In this document: positions 5,537-22,114 of the stretch, one piece after another
Position numbering within the stretch: the first letter of the stretch is position 1
How the letters are laid out: each line of letters opens with the position of its first letter
Assembly (NCBI GenBank): GCA_964510585.1
Contig: CAZECW010000032.1
Location: 1-24,233, forward strand
Direction of reading: 5' to 3'
Source of the DNA: an uncultured archaeon
GTDB taxonomy: Archaea > Asgardarchaeota > Jordiarchaeia > Jordiarchaeales > Jordiarchaeaceae
Length of the DNA: 24,233 nucleotides
Program-made: the position numbers and the translations under genes
Notes under the pieces: model-generated
What the model saw: the letters and a program-made list of their open reading frames with translations, nothing else
Told to the model about the DNA's origin: nothing
Databases searched by the model: none

Positions 5537-7159
5537 ATGGCATATAAGTATCCCCTACTATATAAGCACATACTGGAAAACTGTTCAAAAGTATATCCTA
5601 ACTCCGAAATTGTGTATAGGGACACCCTCAGATTCACTTACAAGGAGATGGACAGGAGGGCAAGAAAAACTTCAAACATGCTGGCAGAACTAGGAGTAAA
5701 AGAGGGAGACAAAGTAGTATGTTTTGACTGGAATACTTACCAGTTCTTTGATCTTTATTGGGGCGTCCCATGTATGGGCGCTGTTCTACATGAGGGAAAC
5801 CCCAGACTCTCCATAGCAGAAGCCGAATACGTAGTAAACCACGCAGAAGACAAAGTACTACTCTTCAACCAGGACTTCCTACCATTAATAGAAGCAATAG
5901 CTCCCAAACTGAAAACTGTTGAACACTACATAGTCATAAACGACACCAAAGAAATTCCAGAAACCAAACTTGAACCCATATACAACTACAATGAACTCCA
6001 TCAATCCGCATCGGCGGATTACGAGTATCCCGACCTAGACGAAAACACAATAGCCACCATGTGTTACACAACAGGAACCACAGGCCTGCCGAAAGGCTGC
6101 GTCTTCTCACAAAGGCAAGGAGTGTTACATACTCTTGTACAATCCGCCGCTTCGGGAGCCTACTGGGGCATAGGGATGGAAGACGTTCTGCTACACGTAA
6201 CTCCACTATTCCACGCACACGCTTGGGGATTACCCTATTCATGTGCACTCTTCGGAATGAAACAAGTACTCCCAGGAAGATACGATCCCGCAATGATGGT
6301 AAACCTAATAGTAAAAGAGAAATGCACCGTATCGGCATTCGTACCAACACTACTTGTGCTTATGATGTGGGCGCCCAACTTTAAAGAAGCCATACCCCAA
6401 CTAAAGGGATTCAAATGCTTCATTGGAGGATCAGCTCTACCCAGAGGACTTGCAGAACAAGGTTGGGAATACGGAATGAAAATATTCGCCGCATATGGCC
6501 TAACAGAAAGCTTCCCACTACTCACAGAAGCATTCATCAGGCCCGAACATAAAGATTTACCCAAAGATGAAAAAATCACAAGATGGATCACAGCCGGGTT
6601 ACCAGTGCCACTAGTTCACCTTAGAGTTGTGGATGAGAATATGAATGATGTCCCAGCCGACAACAAAACAATGGGCGAAATAGTGGTAAGAGCACCCTGG
6701 CTTACCATGGAATACTACAAGGAGCCTGAAAAAACAGCGGAGCTGTGGAGAGGAGGATGGATGCACACCGGAGACATAGCCACCATCGATAGTGAAGGCT
6801 ACATTCACATAAGGGACAGAACCAAAGACGTAATAAAAAGCGGAGGCGAATGGATATCCACACTCACCCTAGAGGACGTAGCCAGCCTACACCCAGCCGT
6901 AATGGAGGCCTGCGTCGTAGGAGTCAAACACCCAAAGTGGGACGAGAGACCACTTGTCATAATTGTACCAAAACCAGAGTACAAAGGCAAAGTAACTGAA
7001 CAAGAAATTCTAGAGCACTTCAAGAAGTACCCTGAAAGAGTGCCGAAATGGTGGCTTCCCGACAAGGTCATATTCGTGGACTCGCTTCCAAAAACCAGTG
7101 TGGGCAAATTCAACAAGAAAGTTCTAAGAGACCAGTATAAGGACATTCTCATGGGCTAA
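5537..7159 (+). CDS. Medium/long-chain fatty acid-CoA ligase (AlkK/DmdB-like adenylate-forming enzyme)
   Basis: YTTGTTGLPKG AMP-binding loop, AYGLTE, WMHTGD, IRDRTKDVIKSGGEW and LPKTSVGK (A10 Lys); 540 aa. Confidence 0.95.
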   Translation: MAYKYPLLYKHILENCSKVYPNSEIVYRDTLRFTYKEMDRRARKTSNMLAELGVKEGDKVVCFDWNTYQFFDLYWGVPCMGAVLHEGNPRLSIAEAEYVVNHAEDKVLLFNQDFLPLIEAIAPKLKTVEHYIVINDTKEIPETKLEPIYNYNELHQSASADYEYPDLDENTIATMCYTTGTTGLPKGCVFSQRQGVLHTLVQSAASGAYWGIGMEDVLLHVTPLFHAHAWGLPYSCALFGMKQVLPGRYDPAMMVNLIVKEKCTVSAFVPTLLVLMMWAPNFKEAIPQLKGFKCFIGGSALPRGLAEQGWEYGMKIFAAYGLTESFPLLTEAFIRPEHKDLPKDEKITRWITAGLPVPLVHLRVVDENMNDVPADNKTMGEIVVRAPWLTMEYYKEPEKTAELWRGGWMHTGDIATIDSEGYIHIRDRTKDVIKSGGEWISTLTLEDVASLHPAVMEACVVGVKHPKWDERPLVIIVPKPEYKGKVTEQEILEHFKKYPERVPKWWLPDKVIFVDSLPKTSVGKFNKKVLRDQYKDILMG

Positions 7160-7290: not shown

Positions 7291-7905
7291 ATGGCTGCTG
7301 GCGAGGGAGTAAGGGACATTGCCAACCAAAAGAGGGAGCTGGAGAAGAAATATTTTATTTCAGGGATTTTGTTTTACTTCCCCTTCACCGCCGTAACTTT
7401 AACCGTGATAGTTTTGTCGACTATTATTTCAAACTTGGTTTATGGAAATCCATTGATAAACCACATATTGTATGGAGAGATCTGGGGAAAAATTCTTTCT
7501 TCCATAATTTTAATAGCGTCCATAATTGGAGCATTCTTATGTGGACTCGTAAAATATCGGAAGAGGATATTCTGGAAAACCCCGCCCTATGTGAGCAAAA
7601 AGTTAAACGCAGTTTTTAATGTTGGTTTAGTTTGGATGTTTATGAGTGGGGTATACTTTATAACACATTTTTTGAATTTTCTTTCCGATTTCGGCACATA
7701 CACTAGTTATAGCCTGTTTAACGGCTATGCCCACTATTTAACAGGAGATTTTGGGTTTGCACTTAATTATTCCATTACTTTCCCCATGGTGCAGTCAGAA
7801 GTGGGAAATTGGGCGCTCTGGCTGTACGGGATGATTCTACCCCTTTTTGTAGTGTCGATCCTTATGGTAATGGGAGTTTTAGTATATGTGAAATACAAAA
7901 AGTAA
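7291..7905 (+). CDS. Hypothetical integral membrane protein
   Basis: 204-aa ORF with about 4 hydrophobic segments and a basic C-terminus; no family recognised. Confidence 0.7.
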   Translation: MAAGEGVRDIANQKRELEKKYFISGILFYFPFTAVTLTVIVLSTIISNLVYGNPLINHILYGEIWGKILSSIILIASIIGAFLCGLVKYRKRIFWKTPPYVSKKLNAVFNVGLVWMFMSGVYFITHFLNFLSDFGTYTSYSLFNGYAHYLTGDFGFALNYSITFPMVQSEVGNWALWLYGMILPLFVVSILMVMGVLVYVKYKK

Positions 7906-7950
7906 TGTGTTATGTAGGATGGGATTTTTGGTGAATGGAGGTTTGGTGAA

Positions 7951-8637
7951 TTGTTGATTGGTGACGATTTGGATTTGCAGAAAGCATACAGGAGAATCAT
8001 CATTGCATCCGCCCCCATTGGGGCGCTTTGTATCTCTGTTTATTTAATTTATGTGTGGTTGGCGTTTCTAACTCTTTTTAAAATTCCGATAGGTTGCATT
8101 CCTTACTTTTTTGGCACGCCGCTTGGACTCACAAACCCCCTAGGGATACTGTGGCGTATTGAAATCAAAAATTTCTTTGTGGGACTCTACATCTCACCAT
8201 TTACTTATCCAATAGTTTTGTTTAGGGTGAATACCACAATGGAGTTCGTATTGTTAGCACTGTTTTTTGTTACTTTTGCCCTGCTTTTAATTAGGTGGCC
8301 GGTTAATTTCCTAATTTTTCGCTTGGCGAAGGAGGCAGAATTTAGTACATTAATGGTCACTTTTAGGAGCTGGAGGCTGCCTCCCTCCAACCGTTACAAG
8401 ACCTATGGTGAAGCGAAAAACAGAATAAGACAGATAATCAAGAATGGCTCAATAAAAGAGAAGTCAGCGGTTTTCATGATGTACGCATGTGGTTTCCTCT
8501 TTTTCATTTTTTTAGTAGTGTATTTGTTTAACCTATCTGGGATTTTGCCTATTAGCCTGAGTTTCAACTTTGTTCTCATATCCGTCCTTCTGTTTTTACT
8601 GTTCTGCCAATGGTTTGTTTGGAAAACCATTAGATGA
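7951..8637 (+). CDS. Hypothetical integral membrane protein
   Basis: 228-aa ORF with several hydrophobic segments; GGAGGT at 7937-7942 before a TTG start; no family recognised. Confidence 0.7.
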   Translation: MLIGDDLDLQKAYRRIIIASAPIGALCISVYLIYVWLAFLTLFKIPIGCIPYFFGTPLGLTNPLGILWRIEIKNFFVGLYISPFTYPIVLFRVNTTMEFVLLALFFVTFALLLIRWPVNFLIFRLAKEAEFSTLMVTFRSWRLPPSNRYKTYGEAKNRIRQIIKNGSIKEKSAVFMMYACGFLFFIFLVVYLFNLSGILPISLSFNFVLISVLLFLLFCQWFVWKTIR

Positions 8638-8655
8638 GACACAGATGACGTCTTT

Positions 8656-9423
8656 TTATGGTTCCCTTTTTATTTCTTGAACAATTCTTGTTAGTATTTC
8701 TGAGGCGTTTCCATTGATTACTATGTCAGAGTTTTCGTCGAACCAGGTTTTTTCTAGGTTAATTATGGCTACTTTTTTTCCTCGTTTTTTGACCATTTCT
8801 GGGAAGCTTCCTGATGGCTCCACGAGGAGTGTTGAGCCCACCACTATTAAAAGGTCGCATTCATCGAGTTCGTGTAGGCACTGTTGGTAGAGCTGTTGGG
8901 GAATTTCCTCAAAGAATAGTGTGGCGTCAGGCTTTAATATGTGGCCGCACCACATACATCTGGGCACTAGGGAGCACATGGGAACCATCTGGGTCATAAC
9001 ATATTCAAAAGAGTACTTTCTTCCGCAGTTGACGCACACCGATCTCCAAGCAGTTCCATGCAGCTCTATTACGTTCCTACTGCCCGCCTTTTGGTGTAGC
9101 CCATCAATGTTTTGAGTAATGATGCAGGATACATACCCCAGTTTCTCCAGTTCTGCTAATGATTGGTGTACAGGGTTGGGCTCCGCCCGCAGGAGGGGAC
9201 CAGCAAATTGGGCGGCGAAGAACCAGAACTGGTGGGGCTTTAGCACAAAGCTACTGGCAGTTGATATTTCCGGGTCATACTTTTTCCAAGTTCCCTCCGG
9301 TCCCCTAAAATCGGGAATACCACTCTCAACAGAGGCTCCTGCACCCGTTAAAACAACACACTTACTTGACTGTCTCAGCAGCTTAACCAGTTCCTGTACC
9401 TTACCGTCTAAATCTTGAGTCAA
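8656..9423 (-). CDS. cobB: NAD-dependent protein deacylase (Sir2 family)
   Basis: TGAGASVESGIPDFRG, ITQNIDGLH, ELHG catalytic His, CxxC...CxxC zinc module, IINLEKT; TTG start after GAGG. Confidence 0.93.
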   Translation of the reverse strand: MTQDLDGKVQELVKLLRQSSKCVVLTGAGASVESGIPDFRGPEGTWKKYDPEISTASSFVLKPHQFWFFAAQFAGPLLRAEPNPVHQSLAELEKLGYVSCIITQNIDGLHQKAGSRNVIELHGTAWRSVCVNCGRKYSFEYVMTQMVPMCSLVPRCMWCGHILKPDATLFFEEIPQQLYQQCLHELDECDLLIVVGSTLLVEPSGSFPEMVKKRGKKVAIINLEKTWFDENSDIVINGNASEILTRIVQEIKREP

Positions 9424-9944
9424 TTTACCTCTTCACCCAAATCGAATCAATTTGTACATCACGCTGTGACTGTTATTAGAATCGGAGTATATTCAGAATA
9501 TATATTTTTCTTGAGGATATCAGTGATTTTTATGATACTTCAGTTTACGTCTTGGTTTTTATTCCTTTTCTTATTTGCTGTGAGCTCCTACTGGCGGTGA
9601 AAACGCGTCTAGATTTGGATTTTTTGTTAATGGATAACTTGTTCCATGTTTTAAAAACAATGCTCTTTTAAAAGTTAGAGTTCTGTACATAATTAATGTT
9701 TCTATTTTTCGGGTTGATTCCAATGTTTAAAGCCACCTAAAAATCCTAAAAAAACATCATCACGCATGTAACAACACAATTCTAGAGCAAGAAACACCCA
9801 TTAAGATGATAAAAATAAGCAACCGAGGGGATAGAAGTAGAAAAGAAGTGAACAAAACGATACATCCATCGAAAAGGATAAGCCCAAAAAAGTAACAAGA
9901 GAGAAAGAGGAAACAAGAAAGAGGGAGGGCACTACAAAAATAAG

Positions 9945-10788
9945 AACAGCTGGCAATAATGCGACCAGAAACTGGCAAAAGAGGCAAGATGTATGACTCA
10001 CTAGACTCCCCAAAATTTTGGAAAAGAAACGAAAACCGTAAACCAAAAACATCATCCCTCACTAGTATCTAGAATACCCTAATGATCCTCCTAGGCTTCA
10101 CCTAAATAGTTTTAGGGTCAGCCGCAGAGAACTTGGCTTCCTCAACAAAGTCTCCGCAATTTCATACCACATGCAGATCCGAAGAGGAGTGGGAAAATGC
10201 GGAACTAAAGATAATAAAGAACATCCCACTAAACAGAGACGCAGTCATCCCCCTAAACTGCTCTAGAATAAAGTTTCCAAAAACGCGGGAAGCGGATAAA
10301 TGAAAAGGGGAAAGTGAAGAGAGGCGGCATAAAAGTCCACATAGCACTACGAGACGGAACGAAAAATGTAATACGGGTAACAGAGGAAAACGTTAAGGGT
10401 TCCCAGAAGCTCAAACCTCTCACTTAGAGGCTGGCAGAAAACATTAAGTTGAAGCAGGTGAATGTTGACGGCAAATACAAACTAGGGGAGATTTTACAAT
10501 AGATAGTATAGGGGTAAAGCCAAATATAGGATGCGGAAGGAAGCCAGCAAGGGGGGAGAGTTTTCTTGAGTAAGAAGGAGTTTTAGAAGTACAGAAAGTT
10601 TAGTTATGAGGAGTGGAGGGATAATTACTTTTACTGTCAGTGATGGTGTGGTTAATGGGACTCTCTCAACTGTGAGTAGGATTGGAAGTGTGTTCGGGCG
10701 AATTTAGAACATGTTTCAAGAGTTGGAAAAGAAGCCTCCCTTTTGCAACATTGTCTTGAAGTTCTACGCCGTAGAGGAGCTATACTAG
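9945..10788 (+). pseudogene. Decayed IS5-family (archaeal IS903/ISC1058-like) DDE transposase
   Basis: Stitching plus frames across stops and frameshifts gives ordered fragments W..QKLAKRG, LMILLGF, RRELGFL, VIPLNCSRIK (first Asp now Asn, 10256-10258), KRGGIKVHIA (KVHIA 10332-10346), VTEENV, VNVDGKY (Asp 10467), YEEWRD, STVSRI and MFQE (10711). Total span is about 280 codons. Terminal inverted repeats not identified. Confidence 0.8.
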
Positions 10789-10868
10789 CGACTGTCAGTT
10801 AAAAATAAATATGTGAAACGCTATCTCAAGCCAAAAAGGGTGTATCGTGAAAATGTAACAAAAAGTAG

Positions 10869-10876
10869 TATAAATT
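10869..10876 (+). promoter_or_regulatory. TATA box of the corrinoid protein operon
   Basis: TATAAATT preceded by a purine-rich BRE-like AAAAGTAG; spacing fits a start at 10913. Confidence 0.5.
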
Positions 10877-10912
10877 AAGAGTTTGAAAAAATCATTTCGG
10901 ATGGTGTTTATT

Positions 10913-11539
10913 TTGAATGATTTGGTGGATTTGATAGTAAGTCTCGATGAAAAGGGTGCGGTGGAACTAGTTAGGAGTATGATTGAGAAGGACGTAGACC
11001 CCTTAAAAATTTTAGAACAAGTGAGAACCGCCATGGCTAAAGTGGGAGAAAAATTTGAGAAGAATGAATTTTTTCTTCCAGACCTAATCATGTCCGGCGA
11101 GATTTTGAGACAAATAACCGAAATTGTAAAACCAAAAATCAAATCCAATGCTAATATCAAGACTTTGGGGAAGGTGGTTCTAGGGACAGTCAGTGGGGAT
11201 ATTCACGATATAGGAAAGGACATTGTGAAATTCATGCTAGACGCCAACGGTTTCGAAGTCATCGACTTAGGTGTGGATGTAGCCAAAGAAAAATTCGTGG
11301 AAAAAATCAAGGAATCGGATGCTAAAATCCTAGCCCTCAGCGGTTTCCTCACGTTGTCCTATGACTCAATGAAGGAAACCATAGCGGAAATCAAGAGAGC
11401 GGGATTAAGAGATAAGATTAAGATAATGATTGGTGGCGGACAGGTGGATGAAAACATAAGAAGGTATGTGGAGGCAGATGCCTACGGTAAAGACGCCGTA
11501 GAAGCCGTAGCATTAGCTAAGAAGTGGGCAGGTGCTTAA
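10913..11539 (+). CDS. Methyltransferase corrinoid (B12-binding) protein
   Basis: N-terminal cap domain (FFLPDLIMSGE), DIHDIGK base-off/His-on motif, LSGFLT and IGGG. Start moved from 10883 to TTG 10913 (GGTG upstream, TATA position). Confidence 0.94.
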   Translation: MNDLVDLIVSLDEKGAVELVRSMIEKDVDPLKILEQVRTAMAKVGEKFEKNEFFLPDLIMSGEILRQITEIVKPKIKSNANIKTLGKVVLGTVSGDIHDIGKDIVKFMLDANGFEVIDLGVDVAKEKFVEKIKESDAKILALSGFLTLSYDSMKETIAEIKRAGLRDKIKIMIGGGQVDENIRRYVEADAYGKDAVEAVALAKKWAGA

Positions 11540-11540
11540 A

Positions 11541-12794
11541 ATGTCAAAGACGCCTGAAGAATTGTATAAGGAGAGAGAGCAGAGGTGGAACGACACCGTA
11601 GCTCTCAAGGAGCCGGATAGGGTTCCTCTATGTCCATTCGTCAATTTTTGGCCTGCGCGTTATAAAGGGTTAAGCTTTAAGGAAGCAATGTTTGACCACC
11701 CTAGGGCTGCGAACGCCTTTAAAGAAACAGTCTTAGAATTTGATTGGGATATGGCGCCTTCAATGCTACCTATGTTTTCAGGGAACGTTTTCAAGAATTT
11801 GAAGTTAAGGATTTTAAAGGTTCCCGGAATAGACCTCCCAGATAATGTAAACTTCCAAGCCGTTGAAATAGAGCATATGAAGGCAGAAGATTACAAGGAA
11901 TTCTTTGCCAATCCCGCAGATTTTGTAATAAGAAAGTATCTTCCCAGTGTTTTCGGAATATTCGAATTCCTAAAAACAATTCCCGAAATTAATTCATTTA
12001 TGGGCTTGGGTGGAGTTTTAACAATCCCCTTGACTGCGGTTTCTCCAGATTTTGCACAGGCTATGGAGAATCTGAAAAAAGCGGGCGAGGCTCTCTTACA
12101 GTGGATGGGAGTACAAATGAGTTATGAAACAGAGATGAAAAATCTTGGCTATCCCATACAGGTGAACGCCTTTGCACAGTCCCCCTTCGACGTGGTTTCT
12201 GACTACGTGAGAGGAATGCGGGGCACAATGCTTGACATGTACCGAAATCCCGAAGAACTAAAACACTTAATACGATTAATTGAACCATACCAAGCACAGG
12301 CGGCTATATCTATGGCTAAAACTTATGGAAACCCCCGCGTTTTCATCCCCCTCCACCGCGGAGCGGGGGGATTCATGAATAACGATCAATTTGCAGAATT
12401 CTATTGGCCAAGCTTAAAAAAACTGTTGCTTGACCTTGTTGATGCGGGACTACAACCTATGCCCTTCTTTGAAGGCGATTATACCCCCCGTCTAGAGTTC
12501 TTAAAAGAGCTTCCCAAAGGAAAAATCATAGCATGGATGGACAAAGCTGACATTTTCAAGGCAAAGAAGGAAATCGGAGACAGAATCTGCCTCAAGGGAA
12601 ATATACCGGCATCACTATTCATAGCTGGAACACCCACCCAGATGGAGGAGTATTGCAAAAAACTAATCGACGAGGTAGGTGAGGGCGGAGGATTCATGAT
12701 TGATGGAGCCCTGGGCATACCTGACGAGGCAAAACCAGAAAATGTTAGAACAATGACCGAAGTAACCAAGAAATACGGTGTATACAGAAAATAA
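11541..12794 (+). CDS. Uroporphyrinogen decarboxylase (UroD/MtaA-CmuA) family protein, probable corrinoid-dependent methyltransferase
   Basis: EPDRVP N-terminal motif, PFDVVSDYVRG, FIPLHRG, QFAEFYWP, CLKGNIP and GGGFMI; starts 2 nt after the corrinoid gene stop. Confidence 0.85.
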   Translation: MSKTPEELYKEREQRWNDTVALKEPDRVPLCPFVNFWPARYKGLSFKEAMFDHPRAANAFKETVLEFDWDMAPSMLPMFSGNVFKNLKLRILKVPGIDLPDNVNFQAVEIEHMKAEDYKEFFANPADFVIRKYLPSVFGIFEFLKTIPEINSFMGLGGVLTIPLTAVSPDFAQAMENLKKAGEALLQWMGVQMSYETEMKNLGYPIQVNAFAQSPFDVVSDYVRGMRGTMLDMYRNPEELKHLIRLIEPYQAQAAISMAKTYGNPRVFIPLHRGAGGFMNNDQFAEFYWPSLKKLLLDLVDAGLQPMPFFEGDYTPRLEFLKELPKGKIIAWMDKADIFKAKKEIGDRICLKGNIPASLFIAGTPTQMEEYCKKLIDEVGEGGGFMIDGALGIPDEAKPENVRTMTEVTKKYGVYRK

Positions 12795-12810
12795 CGACTT
12801 AGCACTCACG

Positions 12811-12839
12811 ACTCCTACCCCACCACTCTTCTATTTTTT
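12811..12839 (+). terminator. C-rich plus T-tract terminator
   Basis: ACTCCTACCCCACCACTCTTCTATTTTTT after the stop at 12794. Confidence 0.5.
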
Positions 12840-13042
12840 CATAAAACTCAGACTCTACCTGTTTTAACGGTAATTTAAAGTTCAAAGTAGTCTCTTTAAA
12901 TAATAGATTTTTGAATAGTTACAACCTTTTCTTAAAATTCTGAGAAACAGTATATGTGAGGAGAAGGCAGATACCTAATATCCAATCTTTAAGATACTAA
13001 ATAATGGAAGACTTATCTACGGACGGAAGACAACTTAAGGGA

Positions 13043-13200
13043 TTGACACTTCCCTCGACTGAGGTCGGGGGGATTCTTGCACACAGCCTCCTCAACACTC
13101 GGGGATACATTCGTTTAAGCGTTCATCCCTTCACAGCTTAAGCGGCTATCTGCAATGGGTGTACCACCACCCAGTTAACGCAGCCTCCGTTGAGGTGGCC
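13043..13200 (-). ncRNA. Putative TnpB omegaRNA (reRNA)-like scaffold
   Basis: Nested complementarities upstream of the right end: CCTCAAC/GTTGAGG (13189-13195 with 13090-13096), TGGGTG/CACCCA, GGGAT/ATCCC. Position matches where TnpB guide scaffolds are encoded. Expression not shown. Confidence 0.45.
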
Positions 13201-13375
13201 TGTATTTAATATTTATTTCTGTGCTCGAATCTTCTCTGTCTGTTTCGGCTTGGAGCCTTATTTGAGCCTTTGGTCATCCAGGCCACATTCAACAGTGGGT
13301 GCCGGAGAACCCTTTAAATCTTCTGTCCATTCATTCCCGCGATTAAAGTCTGGGGCTTTCTGGGCACCTGTATTT
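13043..13375 (-). mobile_element. 333-bp non-autonomous IS200/IS605 (IS608-like) element with both ends
   Basis: Left end on minus: TTAC (13376-13379) | 16 nt | AAAG (13356-13359) CCCCAGACTTTAATCGCGGGA. Right end: GAAT (13073-13076) CCCCCCGAC-CTCA-GTCGAGGGAAGTG TCAA (13043-13046). No tnpA or tnpB ORF inside. Confidence 0.85.
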
Positions 13376-13694
13376 GTAAAATTTTCAGAATATAACCGAA
13401 TATTTTTGAATAAAGCAAAATTTTGTAATTAAAAATGGTAGTAATAAAAAAATATTGAAAATAAGTGTGTCGGGAGGGGGATTTGGTATATTTACTGTGT
13501 CTTTTAATGTTTGTTGTGTATTTTTGTAACTTTATGTTTGGAGATTGATTTTTTAAGTGTAAATGCCGATTTTAAGGTTTTAAGGGGTGGGATTGAGGCG
13601 GTCTCCACACAAATCTGAACCTGTTTGGAATAGATAACGCTAATTAATTGTATCGATGGCTTACGTTTTTGGTTGAGGTAGTGGTGCAGAGAGT

Positions 13695-14420: not shown

Positions 14421-15566
14421 ATGACCAAAAAGTGGAATATGATTATAACTGAAACGGACATTGCTGACTGGTGTGGGGCTTATATTCCAGCTCTTTTAAG
14501 GGCAAGCGCTGAGGGAAAAATTCCCGACACTGTCATATTTTATTATATAAATAAGCCGGCGGTTTTTATACAGCGTTACTGCGATGCTTTGAGAGACATA
14601 AATTACGACGCATGCATAAAGCACAACATTAAAATCACTAGGGGCCTTGCAGCGGGAGGAGGAGTGATGTATAATGAGCCCGGTACTGAGCCCGCCATGA
14701 CCATAATTTGGAACAAGGACAAGAACCCAGATTTGCCCGGAACAATAGACTTAATCTTAATGAAGTTTATGGGAACCTTCGCAGACGTTATTAGTGAGAA
14801 GTATCGGGTGCCTATGAGGTACCGACCTTTAAACGATATGGAGCTTTGGGACCCCAAAATGAAAGTGTGGAGAAAAATGATGGGAACTGGAGCATCAGGG
14901 CTTTTCAGTGCTGTGGGAATAGGGATAGCACCTCACTCAACTAAGACCACCGATCTTATAGATGAGATACTGAAAGTGCCTGCAGAAAAGTTTTCGGATA
15001 AGGTTTTAAAGGATGTAAAAACAAGAAACTGGAACTTCCAAGAAGCAGGCGTCTTTCCTAAGGGGCTAAAAGAAATCGACAGAATAAGAAAAGACTGGAT
15101 AGAAATAACCCTTCAGACACTAAAAAAGGCCTTCAACGTAGAAGTGGAAGAAGGAGAAATGCCAGAAATAGTCATGCAATATGTTAACGAATTCAAAAAG
15201 CAATTCCACTCAGAACCATGGATATTCGCCAGATCCGCTGAAAAGAAATTCCAAGAAATTCCTCCCGGAACAAGTCTGGGTAAAACTTTTATGAAGGTTA
15301 CAGCCGGACCTCTAATCAGAGCCTATGTTCTCAGAGAAGGGGACACCATAAAGGACATGATGTTTACCGGCACAATGCACATGACCCCGGCCGATGCACT
15401 AGAAAAACTTGAAAAACAACTTATAGGTCTAAAAATAGACGAGAACACAATTAGAGCCAAAGTAAAAGAGTGGGCCACCAAGGACATACAGATAGGCATG
15501 CTTGAACCCAGCCAGATCGCAGAAGTGGTCATTGGAGCATGCAAACAAAGCTACGAAAAAGCATAA
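14421..15566 (+). CDS. Divergent lipoate-protein ligase A family protein with C-terminal LplB-like domain
   Basis: PAVFI, GGGVMYNE (RRxSGGG-like), LND...RKMMG (conserved Lys region), C-terminal LIRAYV...DMMFTG...P...LEKLE..LIG. Confidence 0.75.
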   Translation: MTKKWNMIITETDIADWCGAYIPALLRASAEGKIPDTVIFYYINKPAVFIQRYCDALRDINYDACIKHNIKITRGLAAGGGVMYNEPGTEPAMTIIWNKDKNPDLPGTIDLILMKFMGTFADVISEKYRVPMRYRPLNDMELWDPKMKVWRKMMGTGASGLFSAVGIGIAPHSTKTTDLIDEILKVPAEKFSDKVLKDVKTRNWNFQEAGVFPKGLKEIDRIRKDWIEITLQTLKKAFNVEVEEGEMPEIVMQYVNEFKKQFHSEPWIFARSAEKKFQEIPPGTSLGKTFMKVTAGPLIRAYVLREGDTIKDMMFTGTMHMTPADALEKLEKQLIGLKIDENTIRAKVKEWATKDIQIGMLEPSQIAEVVIGACKQSYEKA

Positions 15567-15849: not shown

Positions 15850-17619
15850 ATGGTTGTTGTTAATGGAGCTCAGCTCATAGTTAGGGCTCTCAAGAATCAG
15901 AATGTGAAGGTTATTTTTACCCTCTGCGGCGACGACGACCTGATTTATAACTACTGTGAGGATGCAGGTATCCGCCTCATAGACTTTAGACACGAGCAAG
16001 CTACCGGTCATGCAGCTCAAGGTTGGTTCATTGCCACGGGCGAGGTTGGCGTATGTCTGGTGCAGTCGGGTCCCGGAGTAACTGATCTTGCTCCATCGAT
16101 TACCGTAGCTTATCAGGAGTGCATTCCAGTTGTGGCTCTAGCTACACACCCCCCTCTCATGAGTGTTGAGAAGTGTACTGTAAACGAGTTTGACGCAGCG
16201 AAAATGTATAGCTCCTTTACCAAGTGGAGCGGATTCTGCTACGAGACCGCCCGGCTACCCGAATACATTAACATGTGTTTCCGAATAGCCGCTGGCGGTA
16301 GACCGGGGCCAGTGCTTCTGAATATTCCCGTGGATGTGATGGTTAAAGAGTGTGACGACCGTTTAGAATGTGTGCAAAACTGTTTCCAACCCATGGAGAA
16401 AAACAGGACGCTGATTCGGCCGCATGGAGACCCAGAAGCTATCAGGAAGGCTCTCAAACTTTTGCTTAACGCTAAGAGGCCCATAATTATGCTGGGCAGT
16501 GGGGCTGGGTTCGCCAACGCTGGTGAAGAGGCCAGAAAGTTTGTGGAGTTAACAAAGATTCCAGTGGGTGCCTGGGGTTGGGGCCAAGGGCTAATCCCAG
16601 ATGATCACCCTCTATGCTTCGGCTTGGCGAGCATTATGGAGGGGCCAGGTCAGGTAATGCTTCCAGTAGCGGATGTGGCTTTAGTGGTGGGTTTAAGGTA
16701 CACCGACCTTTTTGGATACGGCCAACCACCGTTTTTCGCGCCTGACGTCAAAATTATACAGGTAGACATATGTGCTGAAGAAATTGGAAGAAATAGACCC
16801 GTGGAGATTGGCATTGTGGGGGACGCCAAAGCAGTTCTATCACAGTTCTACCAGCAGGCTAAAGAAATTCTCAAGGAGCCACGACCCGAAACTGATTGGG
16901 TGGAAAAAATGCGGGTGGAGAAGCAGAAATTTGAGGAAAGAATAGCCAAGGATGGTTCCAGTGATGATATTCCAATTAAACCCCAAAGGTTGGCTAAGGA
17001 GATTAGGGAATTTATGCCAAGGGATGGCATTATAATTCTGGATGGGGGCGATACCACAGTTTGGGGATTGATGTATCTTAGAGCCTACTATCCCAAACAC
17101 TTATACTTTTCAGGCGGCCTCTATATTCAACACTTGGGCGGCGGAGTACCTATGGCAATAGCGGCAAAGGCAGCAAACCCAGAAAAAAAGGTTCTAGTTT
17201 ACACGGGTGATGGATCCTTCCTATTTAACGGGAAGGAGATAGACACTGCAAGAAGGCACGACCTCCCCTTCGTCACAGTTATCCATAATGATTGCCAGTG
17301 GGGAATGGTGGCCCGAATCCAAAGGTTAGCCCACGGACCCAAGTTCTACGGGCTAGGGTCAAAACTCAGTTCTAAAACCCGCTATGACAAGTACGCTGAA
17401 GCCTTCGATTGCTACGGGGAACTGGTCACAGACCCCAAAGAGATTAAACCCGCACTAAAAAGAGCTTTTGACTCCGGGGTACCAGCAATTGTTGATGTAC
17501 GCATTGACCCAGACGTGGAAACAATTCTAGATTATCTGTGGGCGGGTGCCTACAATCCCGCTACATACGAAAGAACAGTCCCCGAAAAACCACCAGAAGC
17601 CATTACCCCTGTACGGTAA
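15850..17619 (+). CDS. Thiamine diphosphate-dependent enzyme (acetolactate synthase large subunit / 2-hydroxyacyl-CoA lyase / benzaldehyde lyase superfamily)
   Basis: RHEQ catalytic Glu, SGPG, GRPGPVLL, DGGD, GDGSF-x(n)-HND ThDP/Mg motif and WGMV; 589 aa. Confidence 0.92.
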   Translation: MVVVNGAQLIVRALKNQNVKVIFTLCGDDDLIYNYCEDAGIRLIDFRHEQATGHAAQGWFIATGEVGVCLVQSGPGVTDLAPSITVAYQECIPVVALATHPPLMSVEKCTVNEFDAAKMYSSFTKWSGFCYETARLPEYINMCFRIAAGGRPGPVLLNIPVDVMVKECDDRLECVQNCFQPMEKNRTLIRPHGDPEAIRKALKLLLNAKRPIIMLGSGAGFANAGEEARKFVELTKIPVGAWGWGQGLIPDDHPLCFGLASIMEGPGQVMLPVADVALVVGLRYTDLFGYGQPPFFAPDVKIIQVDICAEEIGRNRPVEIGIVGDAKAVLSQFYQQAKEILKEPRPETDWVEKMRVEKQKFEERIAKDGSSDDIPIKPQRLAKEIREFMPRDGIIILDGGDTTVWGLMYLRAYYPKHLYFSGGLYIQHLGGGVPMAIAAKAANPEKKVLVYTGDGSFLFNGKEIDTARRHDLPFVTVIHNDCQWGMVARIQRLAHGPKFYGLGSKLSSKTRYDKYAEAFDCYGELVTDPKEIKPALKRAFDSGVPAIVDVRIDPDVETILDYLWAGAYNPATYERTVPEKPPEAITPVR

Positions 17620-17643: not shown

Positions 17644-17762
17644 GAGGTGACTCTTTAAATTTGTATATTTTTTCGAAGTGATGTTTAATATTTAGCCTAA
17701 TAATGTTTAAATAATTTTTAATAGAATTTAAATTGAATTTACTAATTTTTGGGGTGGTTTGT

Positions 17763-19223
17763 TTGGAGGAATTTGGAGAGTTGAAGGGAATTGTTGGTGT
17801 CGAAAATGTAGTTGAAGATCCAGAAATACTGGATAATTACTCTAGGGATTATAGCTTTGTTCCGCAGAGAAAGCCCATGTGTGTGGTTTTTCCCAAGGAT
17901 GTTTTTGAGATTCAGAAGATTGTCAAATGGTCAAATGAGCAAGGAATTCCGTTGACGCCTATTAGTTCTCCCGGTGGTCCGAGGTTGCGTGGGGACACTA
18001 TTCCGAGCCTTGGAGGTATGATTGTAAATCTGTGTAGAATGAACAGAATTTTGAGAATTGACAGACGAAACAAGGTGGCTATGATTGAGCCGGGAGTGAC
18101 TTTTGATCAACTCAGAAGTGAACTGGAGAAGTATGGCTTGAGGCCCTATACGCCGCTATTGCCACGTTCTACAAAGTCTGTGTTGACCAGCTATCTTGAG
18201 AGGGAACCCATCACCATACCAAAAGATCACTGGGATATGCTTGACCCTCTATTTTGTATAGAGGTGGTTTTTGGAACTTGTGACATTTTAAGAACGGGCG
18301 AGGCTTCGGGTCCAGGAACGGTGGAGGATCTTTTGGCTGCGGGTTCCGCACTGAAGAGTGCGATGGGGCCGGGTGGTTTTGACCCCGTTAGGCTTGTTCA
18401 GGGTGCTCAGGGGACGCTGGGTATTGTTTCTTGGGCAACTGTGGGGGTTGGGTTACTGCCGAGTCTTGAGAGGCTTTTCTTTGTATCTTCAGACAGTATT
18501 GAGAGTCTGATTGAGTTTGCGTACCGTGTCTTAAGGCGGCGCCTGGGCGAAGAATTATTCCTGGTAAACAACTTCTATCTAGCCAATATGGTTGCTGAGA
18601 AATCGGAGGAGATAGCGAAGCTTTCCAGCGATTTGCCAAAATGGGTGCTTATTCTTAATATTTCCGGGTTTGACAAGTTCGCTGAGGAGAGGGTGGAGTA
18701 TCAGGAGAAGGATTCTAGGGAAATTGCTCAGCAACTTGGGTTAGAGCTTCAGACATCAATTTCGGGAATTAGTGGTGATGAGGTACTCAAAGTTTTGAGA
18801 AGTTCTTCCCGAGAATATTGGAAATTCAGGTACAAAGGGTGTTGCCAGGAAATATTCTTCTTAACCATGTTAAATAGAACAGTGAATTTCATTGAGGCAA
18901 TGTACAAGATGGCTGAAGCGGACGAATATCCCAAAACTGAACTCGGAGTATACATACAACCGCTAATGCAGGGTGTGGGGTGCCACTGTGAATTCGACCT
19001 AATGTATAACCCAACTGATGGGGAAGAGAGGGAAAGGATTAAGGGATTGTTTATTCGGGCTAGTGAGAACTTGATAAGTTCGGGGGCGTTTTTCAGCAGA
19101 CCTTATGGTCCCTGGGCGGATATGGTTTACAGTAGGGATGCTGAAACCACTATAGCTCTTAGGAAAGTTAAGGAGCTATTTGATCCAAAGGGAATAATGA
19201 ATCCGGGTAAATTGTGTTTTTAG
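17763..19223 (+). CDS. FAD-binding oxidoreductase (VAO/PCMH-type FAD-binding fold), subunit 1
   Basis: MNRILRID...IEPGVT, IEVV..T.DILRTG, GTLGIV and C-terminal KELFDPKGIMNPGK. Start moved to TTG 17763 (GGGGTGG upstream). Confidence 0.88.
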   Translation: MEEFGELKGIVGVENVVEDPEILDNYSRDYSFVPQRKPMCVVFPKDVFEIQKIVKWSNEQGIPLTPISSPGGPRLRGDTIPSLGGMIVNLCRMNRILRIDRRNKVAMIEPGVTFDQLRSELEKYGLRPYTPLLPRSTKSVLTSYLEREPITIPKDHWDMLDPLFCIEVVFGTCDILRTGEASGPGTVEDLLAAGSALKSAMGPGGFDPVRLVQGAQGTLGIVSWATVGVGLLPSLERLFFVSSDSIESLIEFAYRVLRRRLGEELFLVNNFYLANMVAEKSEEIAKLSSDLPKWVLILNISGFDKFAEERVEYQEKDSREIAQQLGLELQTSISGISGDEVLKVLRSSSREYWKFRYKGCCQEIFFLTMLNRTVNFIEAMYKMAEADEYPKTELGVYIQPLMQGVGCHCEFDLMYNPTDGEERERIKGLFIRASENLISSGAFFSRPYGPWADMVYSRDAETTIALRKVKELFDPKGIMNPGKLCF

Positions 19224-19233
19224 GAGGGATTGG

Positions 19234-20532
19234 ATGAGTTTGGAAAAATATCATGTTCAGACGTTAAGGTGCAATAGGTGCTCTTTGTGCAAATGGGTTC
19301 CCCAACCGAAAATTGCCAGCTGGAGATTCTCCGCCGCCTGTCCCAGCATCCAGAAGTACAATTTCCACGCTTACTCCGGAGGAGGCCGAATAATTATAGC
19401 TTGTGCCCTTTTGGAGAACAAAATAGATTATACAGATGAGCTAGTCAAAATCGTTTATACGTGTAGTATGTGTGGTGCCTGCGATGTTTCTTGCAAAATG
19501 AACTATGGGGGAAACTTGGAGCCTCTTGAGATAATGCATGCGCTTAGGGTTAAGTGTGTGGAAAAGGGAAGGATTCCAACAAGACATAAGACCCTGCTAG
19601 AAGACATTAGAGAATATGATAATCCCTATAGGGAGCCGAGGAAGAAACGGGGGGAATGGGCAGAGGGAATGGGCATTAAAGACCTGTCTCATGAAACAGC
19701 AGAGGTACTATATTATGTGGGATGCACCTCGGCCTATCGACTTCCAGGTTTAGCCAGAACCACGGCCACCATCCTTCAGAATGCGGGAGTAGATTTTGGA
19801 ATCTTGGGAAAAGATGAACTATGCTGTGCAAGCACTGCATACAAAATTGGAGACGAAGCACTAATGGAAGAATACGCTAAAAATAATATTGAGAAATTCA
19901 ACAACCTCGGTGTAAAAGAGGTAGTAACTTCCTGTGCCGGTTGCTATCACATGTTTAAATCCTATTATCCGCTAATAGGAGAAATGAATTTCGATGTCTT
20001 TCACATTACAGAGTACATTGAGCGACTTATGAGGGATGGCAGGATAAAACTCTCAAAAAAGATTCCCATTAAGGCTACCTACCATGATCCTTGCCACTTG
20101 GGCAGACTAGCGGAGCCCCGTGTGCCCTGGAATGGTGTGGAAAAGAAGGTTATGGGACAATTGATAATAACTGATCCACCTAAAGAAGTCAGATTCGGAG
20201 TTAAAGGCGTTTTCGATCCACCCAGAAACATACTAAAAGGTATTCCAGGGCTAGAATTTGTGGAAATGGAGAGAATCAGAGAGTATTCCTGGTGTTGCGG
20301 TTCAGGCGGGGGAGTAAAAGCAGCATTCCCCGAGCTCGCCTCTTTTGCTGCCGCTGAAAGAATAGAGGAAGCAAATGCAACTGGGGCAGAAGCACTGGTC
20401 ACGGCTTGCCCCTTCTGTGAAATAAATCTAGGAGACGCCATAAGAGAGCGTAGAGAGAAAATTAAATTGTATGATATAGTAGAGCTGGTACTTGAGGCGA
20501 TGCATGAAGAGGGAGTTAAAGGAGGGCAATAA
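19234..20532 (+). CDS. Fe-S oxidoreductase, HdrD/GlpC/GlcF-like (two 4Fe-4S motifs plus two CCG domains)
   Basis: CNRCSLC...CP, CSMCGACDVSC, GC...CCAS...CAGC and HDPCHLG...CCGSGGG...CPFC. Confidence 0.92.
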   Translation: MSLEKYHVQTLRCNRCSLCKWVPQPKIASWRFSAACPSIQKYNFHAYSGGGRIIIACALLENKIDYTDELVKIVYTCSMCGACDVSCKMNYGGNLEPLEIMHALRVKCVEKGRIPTRHKTLLEDIREYDNPYREPRKKRGEWAEGMGIKDLSHETAEVLYYVGCTSAYRLPGLARTTATILQNAGVDFGILGKDELCCASTAYKIGDEALMEEYAKNNIEKFNNLGVKEVVTSCAGCYHMFKSYYPLIGEMNFDVFHITEYIERLMRDGRIKLSKKIPIKATYHDPCHLGRLAEPRVPWNGVEKKVMGQLIITDPPKEVRFGVKGVFDPPRNILKGIPGLEFVEMERIREYSWCCGSGGGVKAAFPELASFAAAERIEEANATGAEALVTACPFCEINLGDAIRERREKIKLYDIVELVLEAMHEEGVKGGQ

Positions 20533-20533
20533 G

Positions 20534-22114
20534 ATGGTTTTGGAGAAAAAGGTTTACAAAATGTTGGAGTCAGTTGTGGGACCTGAGAACATTTCGGATG
20601 ATCCAATAATAACAACGGTGTACTCCTATCAATACTTGGCGGATTTAGCGAATCCCGACTCAGCTAAGTGGATGCCCGCGAAACCCGAGGCTGTGATTTT
20701 ACCAGGAAGCACCGAGGAGATTCAGGAAATAGTGAGAATATGTAACAAGCATAATGTGAAGATAAAGCCACACAGCACCGGTTGGGGTTTTTGGAGCGGC
20801 ATTGTAACTTCGGGCGTCATACAGATGGATTTGAGAAGAATGAATAGGATAATTGAGATTGATGAGAAAAACATGTACGCGGTGGTAGAACCATACGTTA
20901 CGGCTATGCAGCTTCAAATTGAGGCTATGAAGAGGGGGCTGGACTGCGCCATAATAGGCGCCGGACCCAACCACTCCGTTTTAGCTTCTTGCACAGCAAT
21001 GATGGGATACGGGGATAAAGGTTACCACACCAGCATGAACAATCGGAACCTATTGGGAGTAGAATGGGTTACTCCTACAGGTGAAGTTCTAAGACTGGGT
21101 TCGCTGGGTAGCGGAGCAGGCTGGTTCTGCGGTGACGGCCCAGGACCCAGCCTCAGAGGTCTACTAAGAGGATGGCATGGAACAATGGGGGGACTGGGAA
21201 TATTCACCAAGTGCGCCACCAAACTCTATCCTTGGGCTGGCCCAAAGAAACCAGAAATTATGGGTGAAAATCCCCAGTACGGGATGGTGGTTCCAGAGAA
21301 CTTCAAAATATATACTATTTACTGGGAAAATTGGGAGCAGCAGGCTGATGCCATGTATAAGGTTAGTGAGTCCGAAATTGGCTACATTATTTGGAGAGCC
21401 TGTACACCAATGATGATACCACTATTACTGGGAAAAACAAACAATGAGTACTACGAAATGATGAAAGGAATTTACGATATGATAGAAGCCTACAGATACT
21501 ACTTTACTGTCGTTCTAGCCTCTGAATCCAAGCGGGAGTTAGAGTATCAGGAGAAGGTTTTAAAGAGCATAGTGGACGAAACAAATGGGAAATTCTTCGA
21601 ATTTATACTAAGCGAGAATGCGCCTCTAATCCTTCTAGCCATAGTTACCCAGTGTTACAATTCCAGAATTTTTAGGCCCACCGGACAGTTCCACACCTCC
21701 TTTGGAGCAGCCACATCTTGGGACATGTCAGTGAAAGGAGCAAAAATAGGAGAACAAATCAGAAGGAAATATATTGAGGAGGAAGTGTTTCATGACGACG
21801 GCTGCGGGGAAAACTTCTGGGGAGGCCCATACGAACACAACAAATTCTCTCACTTTGAGGGACTATTTGAATACGACCCCATCGACCCAGAATCCAGAAA
21901 AGCTGCACGCAAATATATAGAAGAAGCCACCATGGCAGTAATTGAAAATAAGATCGGAGTACCAATAGGACCAGGACCGGAATTAGCCCAAATATTTGGG
22001 CCGATCTACGGAAACTTCCACTCATGGCTGGGCAAAATCAAGAAATCCTTTGACCCCAAAAATGTATCAGACCACGCATTCTACGCGGCGCCAGAAGAAA
22101 AAACAAAAGACTAA
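20534..22114 (+). CDS. FAD-binding oxidoreductase (VAO/PCMH-type FAD-binding fold), subunit 2
   Basis: PEAVILPGSTEEIQ, HSTG, DLRRMNRIIEID...VEPYVT, GVEWVTPTGEVLRLG and KKSFDPKN. ATG at 20534 lies 1 nt after the Fe-S gene stop. Confidence 0.88.
   Translation: MVLEKKVYKMLESVVGPENISDDPIITTVYSYQYLADLANPDSAKWMPAKPEAVILPGSTEEIQEIVRICNKHNVKIKPHSTGWGFWSGIVTSGVIQMDLRRMNRIIEIDEKNMYAVVEPYVTAMQLQIEAMKRGLDCAIIGAGPNHSVLASCTAMMGYGDKGYHTSMNNRNLLGVEWVTPTGEVLRLGSLGSGAGWFCGDGPGPSLRGLLRGWHGTMGGLGIFTKCATKLYPWAGPKKPEIMGENPQYGMVVPENFKIYTIYWENWEQQADAMYKVSESEIGYIIWRACTPMMIPLLLGKTNNEYYEMMKGIYDMIEAYRYYFTVVLASESKRELEYQEKVLKSIVDETNGKFFEFILSENAPLILLAIVTQCYNSRIFRPTGQFHTSFGAATSWDMSVKGAKIGEQIRRKYIEEEVFHDDGCGENFWGGPYEHNKFSHFEGLFEYDPIDPESRKAARKYIEEATMAVIENKIGVPIGPGPELAQIFGPIYGNFHSWLGKIKKSFDPKNVSDHAFYAAPEEKTKD

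Follow-up and report, generated by a model that had tools for sequence, protein, structure and literature searches.

The stretch of DNA analysed here, hereafter the window, is the whole of contig C32 (24,233 bases) from the genome of an Asgard archaeon of the genus Freyarchaeum (3.78 Mb in 217 contigs, 41.7% GC, estimated completeness 96%). It carries two adjacent genes on the plus strand, one for a corrinoid (B12-carrier) protein at 10901..11539 and one for a methyltransferase I (MT1) of the UroD fold at 11541..12794, and this pair most likely strips methyl groups from a substrate and feeds them into the acetyl-CoA pathway. On balance, and with moderate confidence, we favour the view that the pair forms the first, substrate-specific stage of a corrinoid-dependent chain of methyl transfer and acts most likely on a polar compound with an O-methyl (methoxy) group, our best guess being a methoxylated aromatic acid or phenol. 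The MT1 is of the long, zinc-free form and falls into a clade, here called clade C, in which we found no assayed member. Systems of this type are already known, and what we describe is an enzyme branch without a studied member.

Two coupled genes for a corrinoid protein and a UroD-fold methyltransferase

The upstream gene encodes a protein of 212 amino acids with a cap helix bundle (PF02607, B12-binding_2, E 5e-17) and a Rossmann B12 domain (PF02310, B12-binding, E 1e-23), and it bears DIHDIG as its DxHxxG His-on motif. It scores 169.8 bits against TIGR02370, the model for methyltransferase cognate corrinoid proteins, which has a cut-off of 215.3, and it is one of 16 corrinoid paralogs in the genome. 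The preferred start is the ATG at 10901, with TTG 10883 and TTG 10913 as in-frame alternatives; the latter was the start given in a first-pass annotation of this DNA. The gene ends in a TAA at 11537-11539 and a single base separates it from the ATG of the MT1 gene at 11541, which is preceded at a distance of 8 nt by a Shine-Dalgarno-like AGGTG.

The two genes lie head to tail, and this order is kept in relatives. A search with the MT1 of 301 Asgard genomes (300 and the present one) gave matches at E <= 1e-60 in 31 of them, among these three of the five other members of the genus and none of the five from the sister family. In all nine Asgard loci examined for synteny a corrinoid gene lies directly 5' of the MT1 gene, the encoded corrinoid orthologs being 55-77% identical to the protein studied here, and from this order we conclude that the pairing is not due to chance. 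Together with the one-base spacing it bears out the description of a coupled corrinoid/UroD-family pair in the first-pass annotation. In two relatives a single corrinoid gene is followed by two (G056) or four (G209) tandem MT1 genes, as in the Mto and O-demethylase clusters discussed below. The contexts of bacterial clade C genes, seen in loci of 8 kb, were uninformative.

The pair had also been credited with a TATA box and a terminator of its own. A TATA-like box, TATAAATT, is present on the plus strand at 10869..10876, with an A-rich stretch directly 5' of it and a distance of 32 nt to the ATG at 10901, and is a candidate archaeal promoter for the pair. Likewise, a run of six T residues at 12834..12839 on the plus strand, 40 nt past the MT1 stop codon, is a candidate archaeal terminator. 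Both signals can be seen as claimed, but as consensus matches only, and a scan for bacterial-type terminators found no plus-strand hairpin at the T run. An Rfam search of the window gave no match, and a repeat scan and a bacterial promoter scan of the window returned nothing informative.

The MT1 has 417 amino acids, of which the Pfam family PF01208 (URO-D; E 2e-23) covers just residues 201-412, the C-terminal half. Its scores against the specialised models of the superfamily are low, with 29.8 bits for the HemE model TIGR01464 (cut-off 302.95), 22.8 bits for the MtaA/CmuA model TIGR01463 (cut-off 235.4) and 18 bits for the MtaA_Meth model (cut-off 400). When the sequence was searched against the PDB the sole strong match (E 1e-43) was CdmB, the chloromethane:corrinoid methyltransferase of Acetobacterium dehalogenans and the only solved long zinc-free MT1 (PDB 9RUI; Nat Commun 2026, PMC13222342). 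A profile made from 76 members of the MT1 family gave 241 bits for CdmB and at most 32 bits for UroD, and did not retrieve MtaA from the PDB. The AlphaFold2 model of the MT1 is a UroD/MtaA barrel (mean predicted local distance difference test 95.1, predicted template modelling score 0.92). With VIA-align it superimposes on MtaA (4ay7) with Z 26.8 and a root mean square deviation (rmsd) of 3.2 Å over 317 aligned residues at 15% identity, and on UroD structures with Z 25-25.7 and rmsd 3.3-4.1 Å over 307-321 residues at 14-16% identity; MtaA was the top structural match among fold libraries that do not contain CdmB 9RUI. The likeness of CdmB to human UroD is of the same degree (Z 26.4; PMC13222342). 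By BLASTP the MT1 is 32.5% identical to MtvB (217 bits), 30% to an MtoB-like paralog in its own genome, 27% to CdmB and 26-28% to CdmB-like proteins of Asgard archaea. Judged by these comparisons it is one of the long, zinc-free MT1s, together with MtvB, MtoB and CdmB, and groups neither with HemE nor with MtaA, which supports the earlier reading of a UroD-fold MT1 partnered with a corrinoid protein.

Phylogenetic placement, zinc site and active-site residues

Homologs of the MT1 are numerous: a word-indexed search returned more than 2,500 proteins, and an exhaustive search gave 3,450 cluster representatives at E <= 1e-3, of which 363 remained at E <= 1e-30. The nearest, with 70-88% identity, come from metagenome-assembled genomes (MAGs) of Freyarchaeota and Lokiarchaeia (Ca. 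Freyarchaeum deiterrae, 70%), while proteins at 45-49% identity belong to Helarchaeota, Promethearchaeota, Chloroflexota/Dehalococcoidia and Deltaproteobacteria. Three anchors were used to place characterised enzymes among them. CdmB is represented by a protein (P0131) identical to 9rui; MtvB, the vanillate/guaiacol:corrinoid MT1 of the MtvABC O-demethylase of Moorella thermoacetica, by a protein of 389 amino acids (L093) that has three exact MtvB peptides and whose first 60 and last 30 residues match the sequence in the paper supplement; and the MtoB-like enzymes by the paralog on contig C62 of the same genome, recognised by the motifs PLDLIGD, PLHLN and HLETILELP.

A careful tree of 64 rows, 19 extra representatives included (IQ-TREE, LG+C20 PMSF), resolves three clades. 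Clade A unites the MtoB-like proteins with CdmB (support 100/99), clade B the MtvB-like proxies from Bacillota with proteins from Planctomycetota (99/99), and clade C the studied MT1 with proteins of Asgard archaea, Chloroflexota, Actinomycetota and Desulfobacterota and with all 19 extra representatives (99/99). In a quick tree of 65 rows MtvB itself joins clade B, without the studied MT1 and next to relatives of 57-75% identity, and this tree and a quick tree of 100 rows concur with the three-clade picture. The long-form MT1 group as a whole, 85 rows in the quick tree, has an SH-aLRT support of 99 there; in the careful tree, where the outgroup consists of three long-branched paralogs from the genome, its support of 92/94 stays under the star threshold. 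The studied MT1 is not an MtvB ortholog, since it lies outside clade B at 32.5% identity, nor is it of the CdmB type, from which clade, identity (27%) and the residues His272 and Glu311 set it apart. It is separate from the MtoB-like C62 paralog in the tree and has neither an MtrH nor a RamA neighbour. The O-demethylase label of the first-pass annotation survives as the best guess, but for an enzyme in a clade apart from both MtvB and the MtoB-like/CdmB proteins.

Contigs were also scanned with an IUPAC pattern uniting MtoB, MtvB and CdmB, which returned 59 loci, with no reference isolates among them, and yielded a CdmB ortholog (L004) and MtvB-like proteins. The scan is not exhaustive: the Moorella mtvB DNA fits the pattern and was nevertheless missed, so a blank there is not proof of absence. 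The MtgB O-demethylase of Bathyarchaeia was considered as a relative and rejected as an unrelated protein of about 300 amino acids (PMC10989822).

The zinc site of MtaA-type enzymes could be located in the MT1 by alignment with the short UroD paralogs of the same genome that have an H-x-C motif. This motif aligns with F309-F310-E311 within FFEGD (309-313), Glu311 occupying the exact position of the zinc cysteine, and A390 of IDGA stands in the place of the third zinc cysteine. FFEGD and A390 are about 80 residues apart, a distance like that in MtaA, and the match coordinates of the NCBIfam MtaA model concur. By these alignments a cysteine-based (thiolate) zinc site is evidently absent from the MT1. 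The first-pass annotation had come to the same conclusion, and rightly placed IDGA at the third cysteine, but took LHRG for the counterpart of H-x-C; LHRG lies one strand before it. CdmB and MtvB are zinc-free as well, unlike enzymes of the OdmB type (PMC13222342).

In clade C a set of polar residues at the C-terminal ends of the barrel strands is invariant or nearly so, namely E109, E111, D217, D221, R224, H272, R273, E311, R317, N354 and D388. All 25 proteins of the clade that were compared keep His272 and Glu311, and so do the MtvB-like proxies, the sister group from Planctomycetota and the MtoB-like rows. The CdmB clade has Trp and Gln at these two positions (11/11 proteins, Bacillota and Asgard), and over E109, E111, D221, H272, R273, E311 and R317 it reads K/R, T/P, A/S, W, Y, Q and L/H, with T/S at D388. 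E109, E111 and LHRGA are common to the studied MT1 and the MtvB-type proteins only, and MtvB as printed in the paper supplement (FQYMEEEYM, LHRGA, FFAEG) resembles the studied MT1. This pattern suggests that His272 and Glu311, on the catalytic face of the barrel, may aid the departure of an oxygen leaving group, and from it we infer that the MT1 is probably of an ether-cleaving rather than a haloalkane type.

MtvB is the assayed enzyme of highest identity, and it shares with the MT1 the long form, the UroD fold, the lack of zinc and the use of a separate corrinoid protein. Motifs in common are KxPGI...FQ..E.E.M..EDY..F.ANP, PLHRGA, FYWPSLK and a Glu at the H-x-C position. The differences are the separate clade (99/99), some 25 extra residues between helices 139-200 in the studied MT1, and the residues at R317, N354 and D388 of clade C, where the MtvB type has Y, G/N/A and D/A. 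In addition, the MT2 (the acceptor methyltransferase) that works with MtvB uses tetrahydrofolate, while the candidates here are of the MtrH type and would use tetrahydromethanopterin (H4MPT).

The Mto system of methoxydotrophy in Methermicoccus shengliensis and Archaeoglobus fulgidus, with MtoB1 and MtoB2, is similar in being archaeal, in combining a corrinoid protein with one or more zinc-free UroD-fold MT1s, and in keeping His272 and Glu311, as read from the MtoB-like rows. It uses an MtrH-type MT2, MtoA, and a RamA-type activator, MtoD, and in A. fulgidus it passes methyl-H4MPT into the Wood-Ljungdahl pathway without methanogenesis (PMC8359953, PMC8630106). It differs in that no MT2 or activator gene lies next to the studied pair, and the studied MT1 is without the insertion of about 25 residues that the MtoB-like proteins have after the FDxD motif. 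The MtoB-like C62 paralog groups with CdmB.

Candidate partners for methyl transfer and the probable substrate

The first-pass annotation had predicted that the acceptor transferase and the reductive activator would be encoded elsewhere, and had left the Wood-Ljungdahl genes to a search of the genome. Both kinds of partner are indeed present: there are four full MtrH genes (on C29, C208, C99 and C71) and two RamA/RACo genes (C99 and C33). CdhC, of the carbon monoxide dehydrogenase/acetyl-CoA synthase, and Mch are encoded on C58, and McrA was not found in this genome at its 96% completeness. The gene set would fit non-methanogenic methylotrophy via the H4MPT Wood-Ljungdahl pathway, which has been proposed for Freyarchaeia and Jordarchaeia (PMC11291895, PMC9723677) and shown for A. 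fulgidus (PMC8359953).

In the mechanism that we propose, the MT1 would bind the methylated substrate and offer its methyl group to Co(I) in the B12 of the neighbouring corrinoid protein, with methyl-Co(III) as the product. The methyl group would then be moved to H4MPT by an MT2 of the MtrH type whose gene lies elsewhere in the genome, and from there could enter the archaeal Wood-Ljungdahl pathway towards acetyl-CoA and acetate, or be oxidised. A RamA-type activator would re-reduce Co(II) after accidental oxidation. The direction of transfer, the MtrH partner and the nature of the substrate are what we infer here.

The nearest paralogous pair in the genome, at C62:51646-53835, has a corrinoid protein 49% identical to the one studied here and the MtoB-like MT1 mentioned above, which is 30% identical to the studied MT1 and 38% to CdmB. 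Next after the pair comes an MtrH fragment of 55 residues that contains a TAG in frame, and two AMP-binding ligase genes face the pair.

In relatives the pair keeps varied company. A gene for an AMP-forming acyl-CoA ligase lies in the window at 5537..7159 on the plus strand (PF00501, PF13193; 566 bits with NF004837, above the cut-off). It is a conserved neighbour in the genus, and any functional link with the pair is tentative: in G038, a complete Freyarchaeum genome, its ortholog (77%) directly precedes the pair and shares its strand, and another (97%) is near the pair in G056. In one Asgard genome (G224) a divergent RamA gene adjoins the pair, in another (G278) a CitMHS transporter gene is 5' of it, and G209 and G281 have two MFS_2 transporter genes 5' and genes for an ADP-forming acyl-CoA synthetase, an esterase and a GH20 glycoside hydrolase 3'. 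The transporters make an imported polar solute more fitting than a gas; as substrate clues the other neighbours are weak.

Several points weigh against a polar methoxy compound as the substrate and against the proposed role of the pair. The window itself is without an MT2 or activator gene; the MT1 is only 27-33% identical to every characterised MT1, in a clade for which no assayed member was found; and the order of branching among clades A, B and C is poorly supported (A+C 75/51 in the careful tree). MtoB was compared through the C62 paralog, which is MtoB-like by its motifs; authentic MtoB, judged by eye from the sequences in the paper supplement, is absent from the tree. The catalytic role of His272 and Glu311 is our suggestion from the residue comparison. 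The acyl-CoA ligase resembles a fatty-acid or methylthiopropionate type and not an aromatic-acid type. Finally, the CdmB work showed that enzymes closely related to O-demethylases can act on haloalkanes (PMC13222342), so that the substrate class is not readable from kinship to O-demethylases.

The alternative that survives best, possible in our view though on the whole unlikely, is that the MT1 serves another class of donor with the same downstream chemistry: an S-methyl compound (methylmercaptopropionate, dimethylsulfide or methanethiol), an N-methyl compound, or an O-methylated sugar or uronic acid. The separation of clade C from all assayed O-demethylases speaks for it, as does the second-best score of the neighbouring ligase, against the 3-(methylthio)propionyl-CoA ligase model (503 bits, under the cut-off of 822), and, for sugars, the MFS_2 transporters (of glycoside/hexuronide type), GH20 and esterase flanking the G209 and G281 arrays, together with a GH1 glycoside hydrolase gene at 961-2298 of the window. 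Against an S-methyl donor, the known UroD-fold enzymes for such compounds (MtsA, MtpA) are reported to be of the zinc type, and the studied MT1 is without Cys ligands; against an N-methyl donor, the known MT1s (MttB, MtmB, MtbB) have other folds. The active-site signature is closest to that of MtvB, and the links with neighbouring genes are loose and depend on the lineage. A rather doubtful extension of the same thought is that the zinc-free UroD-fold MT1s have in clade C a third deep branch, with a substrate class of its own beyond simple methoxyphenols and halomethanes. The branch has R317, N354 and D388 as its own invariant residues, and the substrates could be, for instance, methyl ethers of sugars or uronic acids, aglycones of phenolic glycosides, or carboxylated methyl ethers taken up via MFS_2 or CitMHS.

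That the MT1 is a haloalkane methyltransferase, a passive hydrophobic scaffold channelling chloromethane to Co(I), appears improbable. CdmB shares the three-component logic of the system and is the best sequence match of the MT1 among solved structures, and homologues of it have been reported in Asgard archaea (PMC13222342). The identity is just 27%, however, and the true Asgard CdmB-like proteins cluster with CdmB to the exclusion of the studied MT1. The cavity of CdmB is aromatic and metal-free, the enzyme acting as a passive scaffold, and methoxylated aromatics are not converted (PMC13222342), while seven polar residues of clade C, His272 and Glu311 among them, are replaced in the CdmB clade. 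The solute transporters that adjoin the pair in relatives are a further point against a gaseous substrate. Five of the Asgard proteins, from MAGs of Lokiarchaeota, Hermodarchaeota and Promethearchaeota (P0205, P0216, P0217, P0221 and P0223), are 51-52% identical to the CdmB ortholog, and the Trp/Gln signature is found in P0226 and in the four of these five that are in the residue table. The Asgard CdmB-like proteins with this signature form a lineage distinct from the studied MT1, in agreement with the published report.

It is also quite improbable that the protein works in the reverse direction or at the second step, as an MT2-like enzyme that uses methylcobamide to methylate an acceptor, in the way MtaA does with coenzyme M, or as a biosynthetic methylase. 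Corrinoid methyl transfers are reversible in principle, and MtaA is the top structural match. The MtaA/MtbA-type methylcobamide:coenzyme M methyltransferases (4AY7) do share the UroD TIM-barrel fold, but they are about 80 residues shorter, act as MT2 and have the H-x-C...C zinc site that is replaced by F309, E311 and A390 here, leaving no zinc ligands for thiol activation. The MtaA and CmuA models score far under their cut-offs and the family profile misses MtaA in the PDB; the genome already has four MtrH-type MT2s, and in the tree the protein falls among known MT1s. The reading as a true uroporphyrinogen decarboxylase (HemE) can be dismissed for practical purposes: relatives are publicly named "uroporphyrinogen decarboxylase family protein" and the UroD fold is matched at Z 25-25.7, but the HemE model gives a tenth of its cut-off score, the identity to UroD structures is 14-16%, PF01208 covers the C-terminal half only, and the MT1 gene is translationally coupled to a corrinoid gene in every relative examined.

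The rest of the window and the standing of the family

Some further features of the locus and its relatives deserve mention. In G209 (L078, C3:334000-353999), an Asgard archaeon of another family, the four tandem clade C MT1s behind the single corrinoid gene are 43-44% identical to the studied one; the esterase 3' of the array is of the HSL type with a weak BD-FAE match, a phosphodiesterase gene accompanies it and GH20, and the ADP-forming acyl-CoA synthetase gene is convergent. The layout in G281 is alike. In our window the MT1 gene is followed by about 900 bp (12795-13691) without any open reading frame (ORF) of at least 100 amino acids, up to a gene for an FKBP. At the equivalent position G056, a genome of the same genus, has its second tandem MT1, 78% identical to the studied one, and a search of the spacer for a decayed second copy found no protein-level remnant. 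Two segments upstream of the pair, 7480-8601 and 9417-10893, lack an equivalent in the G056 contig, which is colinear in other respects. They hold the ORFs 7291-7905 (in part), 7951-8637 and 9760-10062, and no Pfam or NCBIfam model matches any of the three. The two segments look like insertions, because in G038 the ligase gene directly abuts the corrinoid gene.

Further downstream, the region 17733-22114 encodes an FAD_binding_4 oxidase, a CCG/4Fe-4S protein and a second FAD_binding_4 oxidase, resembling a glycolate or D-lactate dehydrogenase of the GlcD/GlcF type; the last two frames overlap at 20492-20532. On its 5' side lie genes for an acetolactate-synthase-like thiamine pyrophosphate enzyme (15850-17619) and a divergent LplA-like protein (14421-15566).

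[quoted passage not shown] The genome papers on Freyarchaeia and Jordarchaeia discuss methyltransferases of the MttB, MtrH and pyrrolysine types and not MT1s of the UroD type (PMC11291895, PMC9723677). One genome with about 16 corrinoid proteins and about 17 members of the UroD family makes the scavenging of methyl groups look like a main occupation of the Freyarchaeum lineage.

The pair stands for a large clade, as the 363 cluster representatives at E <= 1e-30 indicate, and the activity of one member would annotate thousands of genes from Chloroflexota, Actinomycetota, Desulfobacterota and Asgard archaea of sediments and the subsurface. His/Glu against Trp/Gln provides a simple and testable marker for separating ether-cleaving from haloalkane MT1s. 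Should clade C turn out to be a third branch with its own substrates, it would represent an undescribed entry of plant-derived methyl groups to the Wood-Ljungdahl pathway in Asgard archaea, Dehalococcoidia and Actinomycetota.

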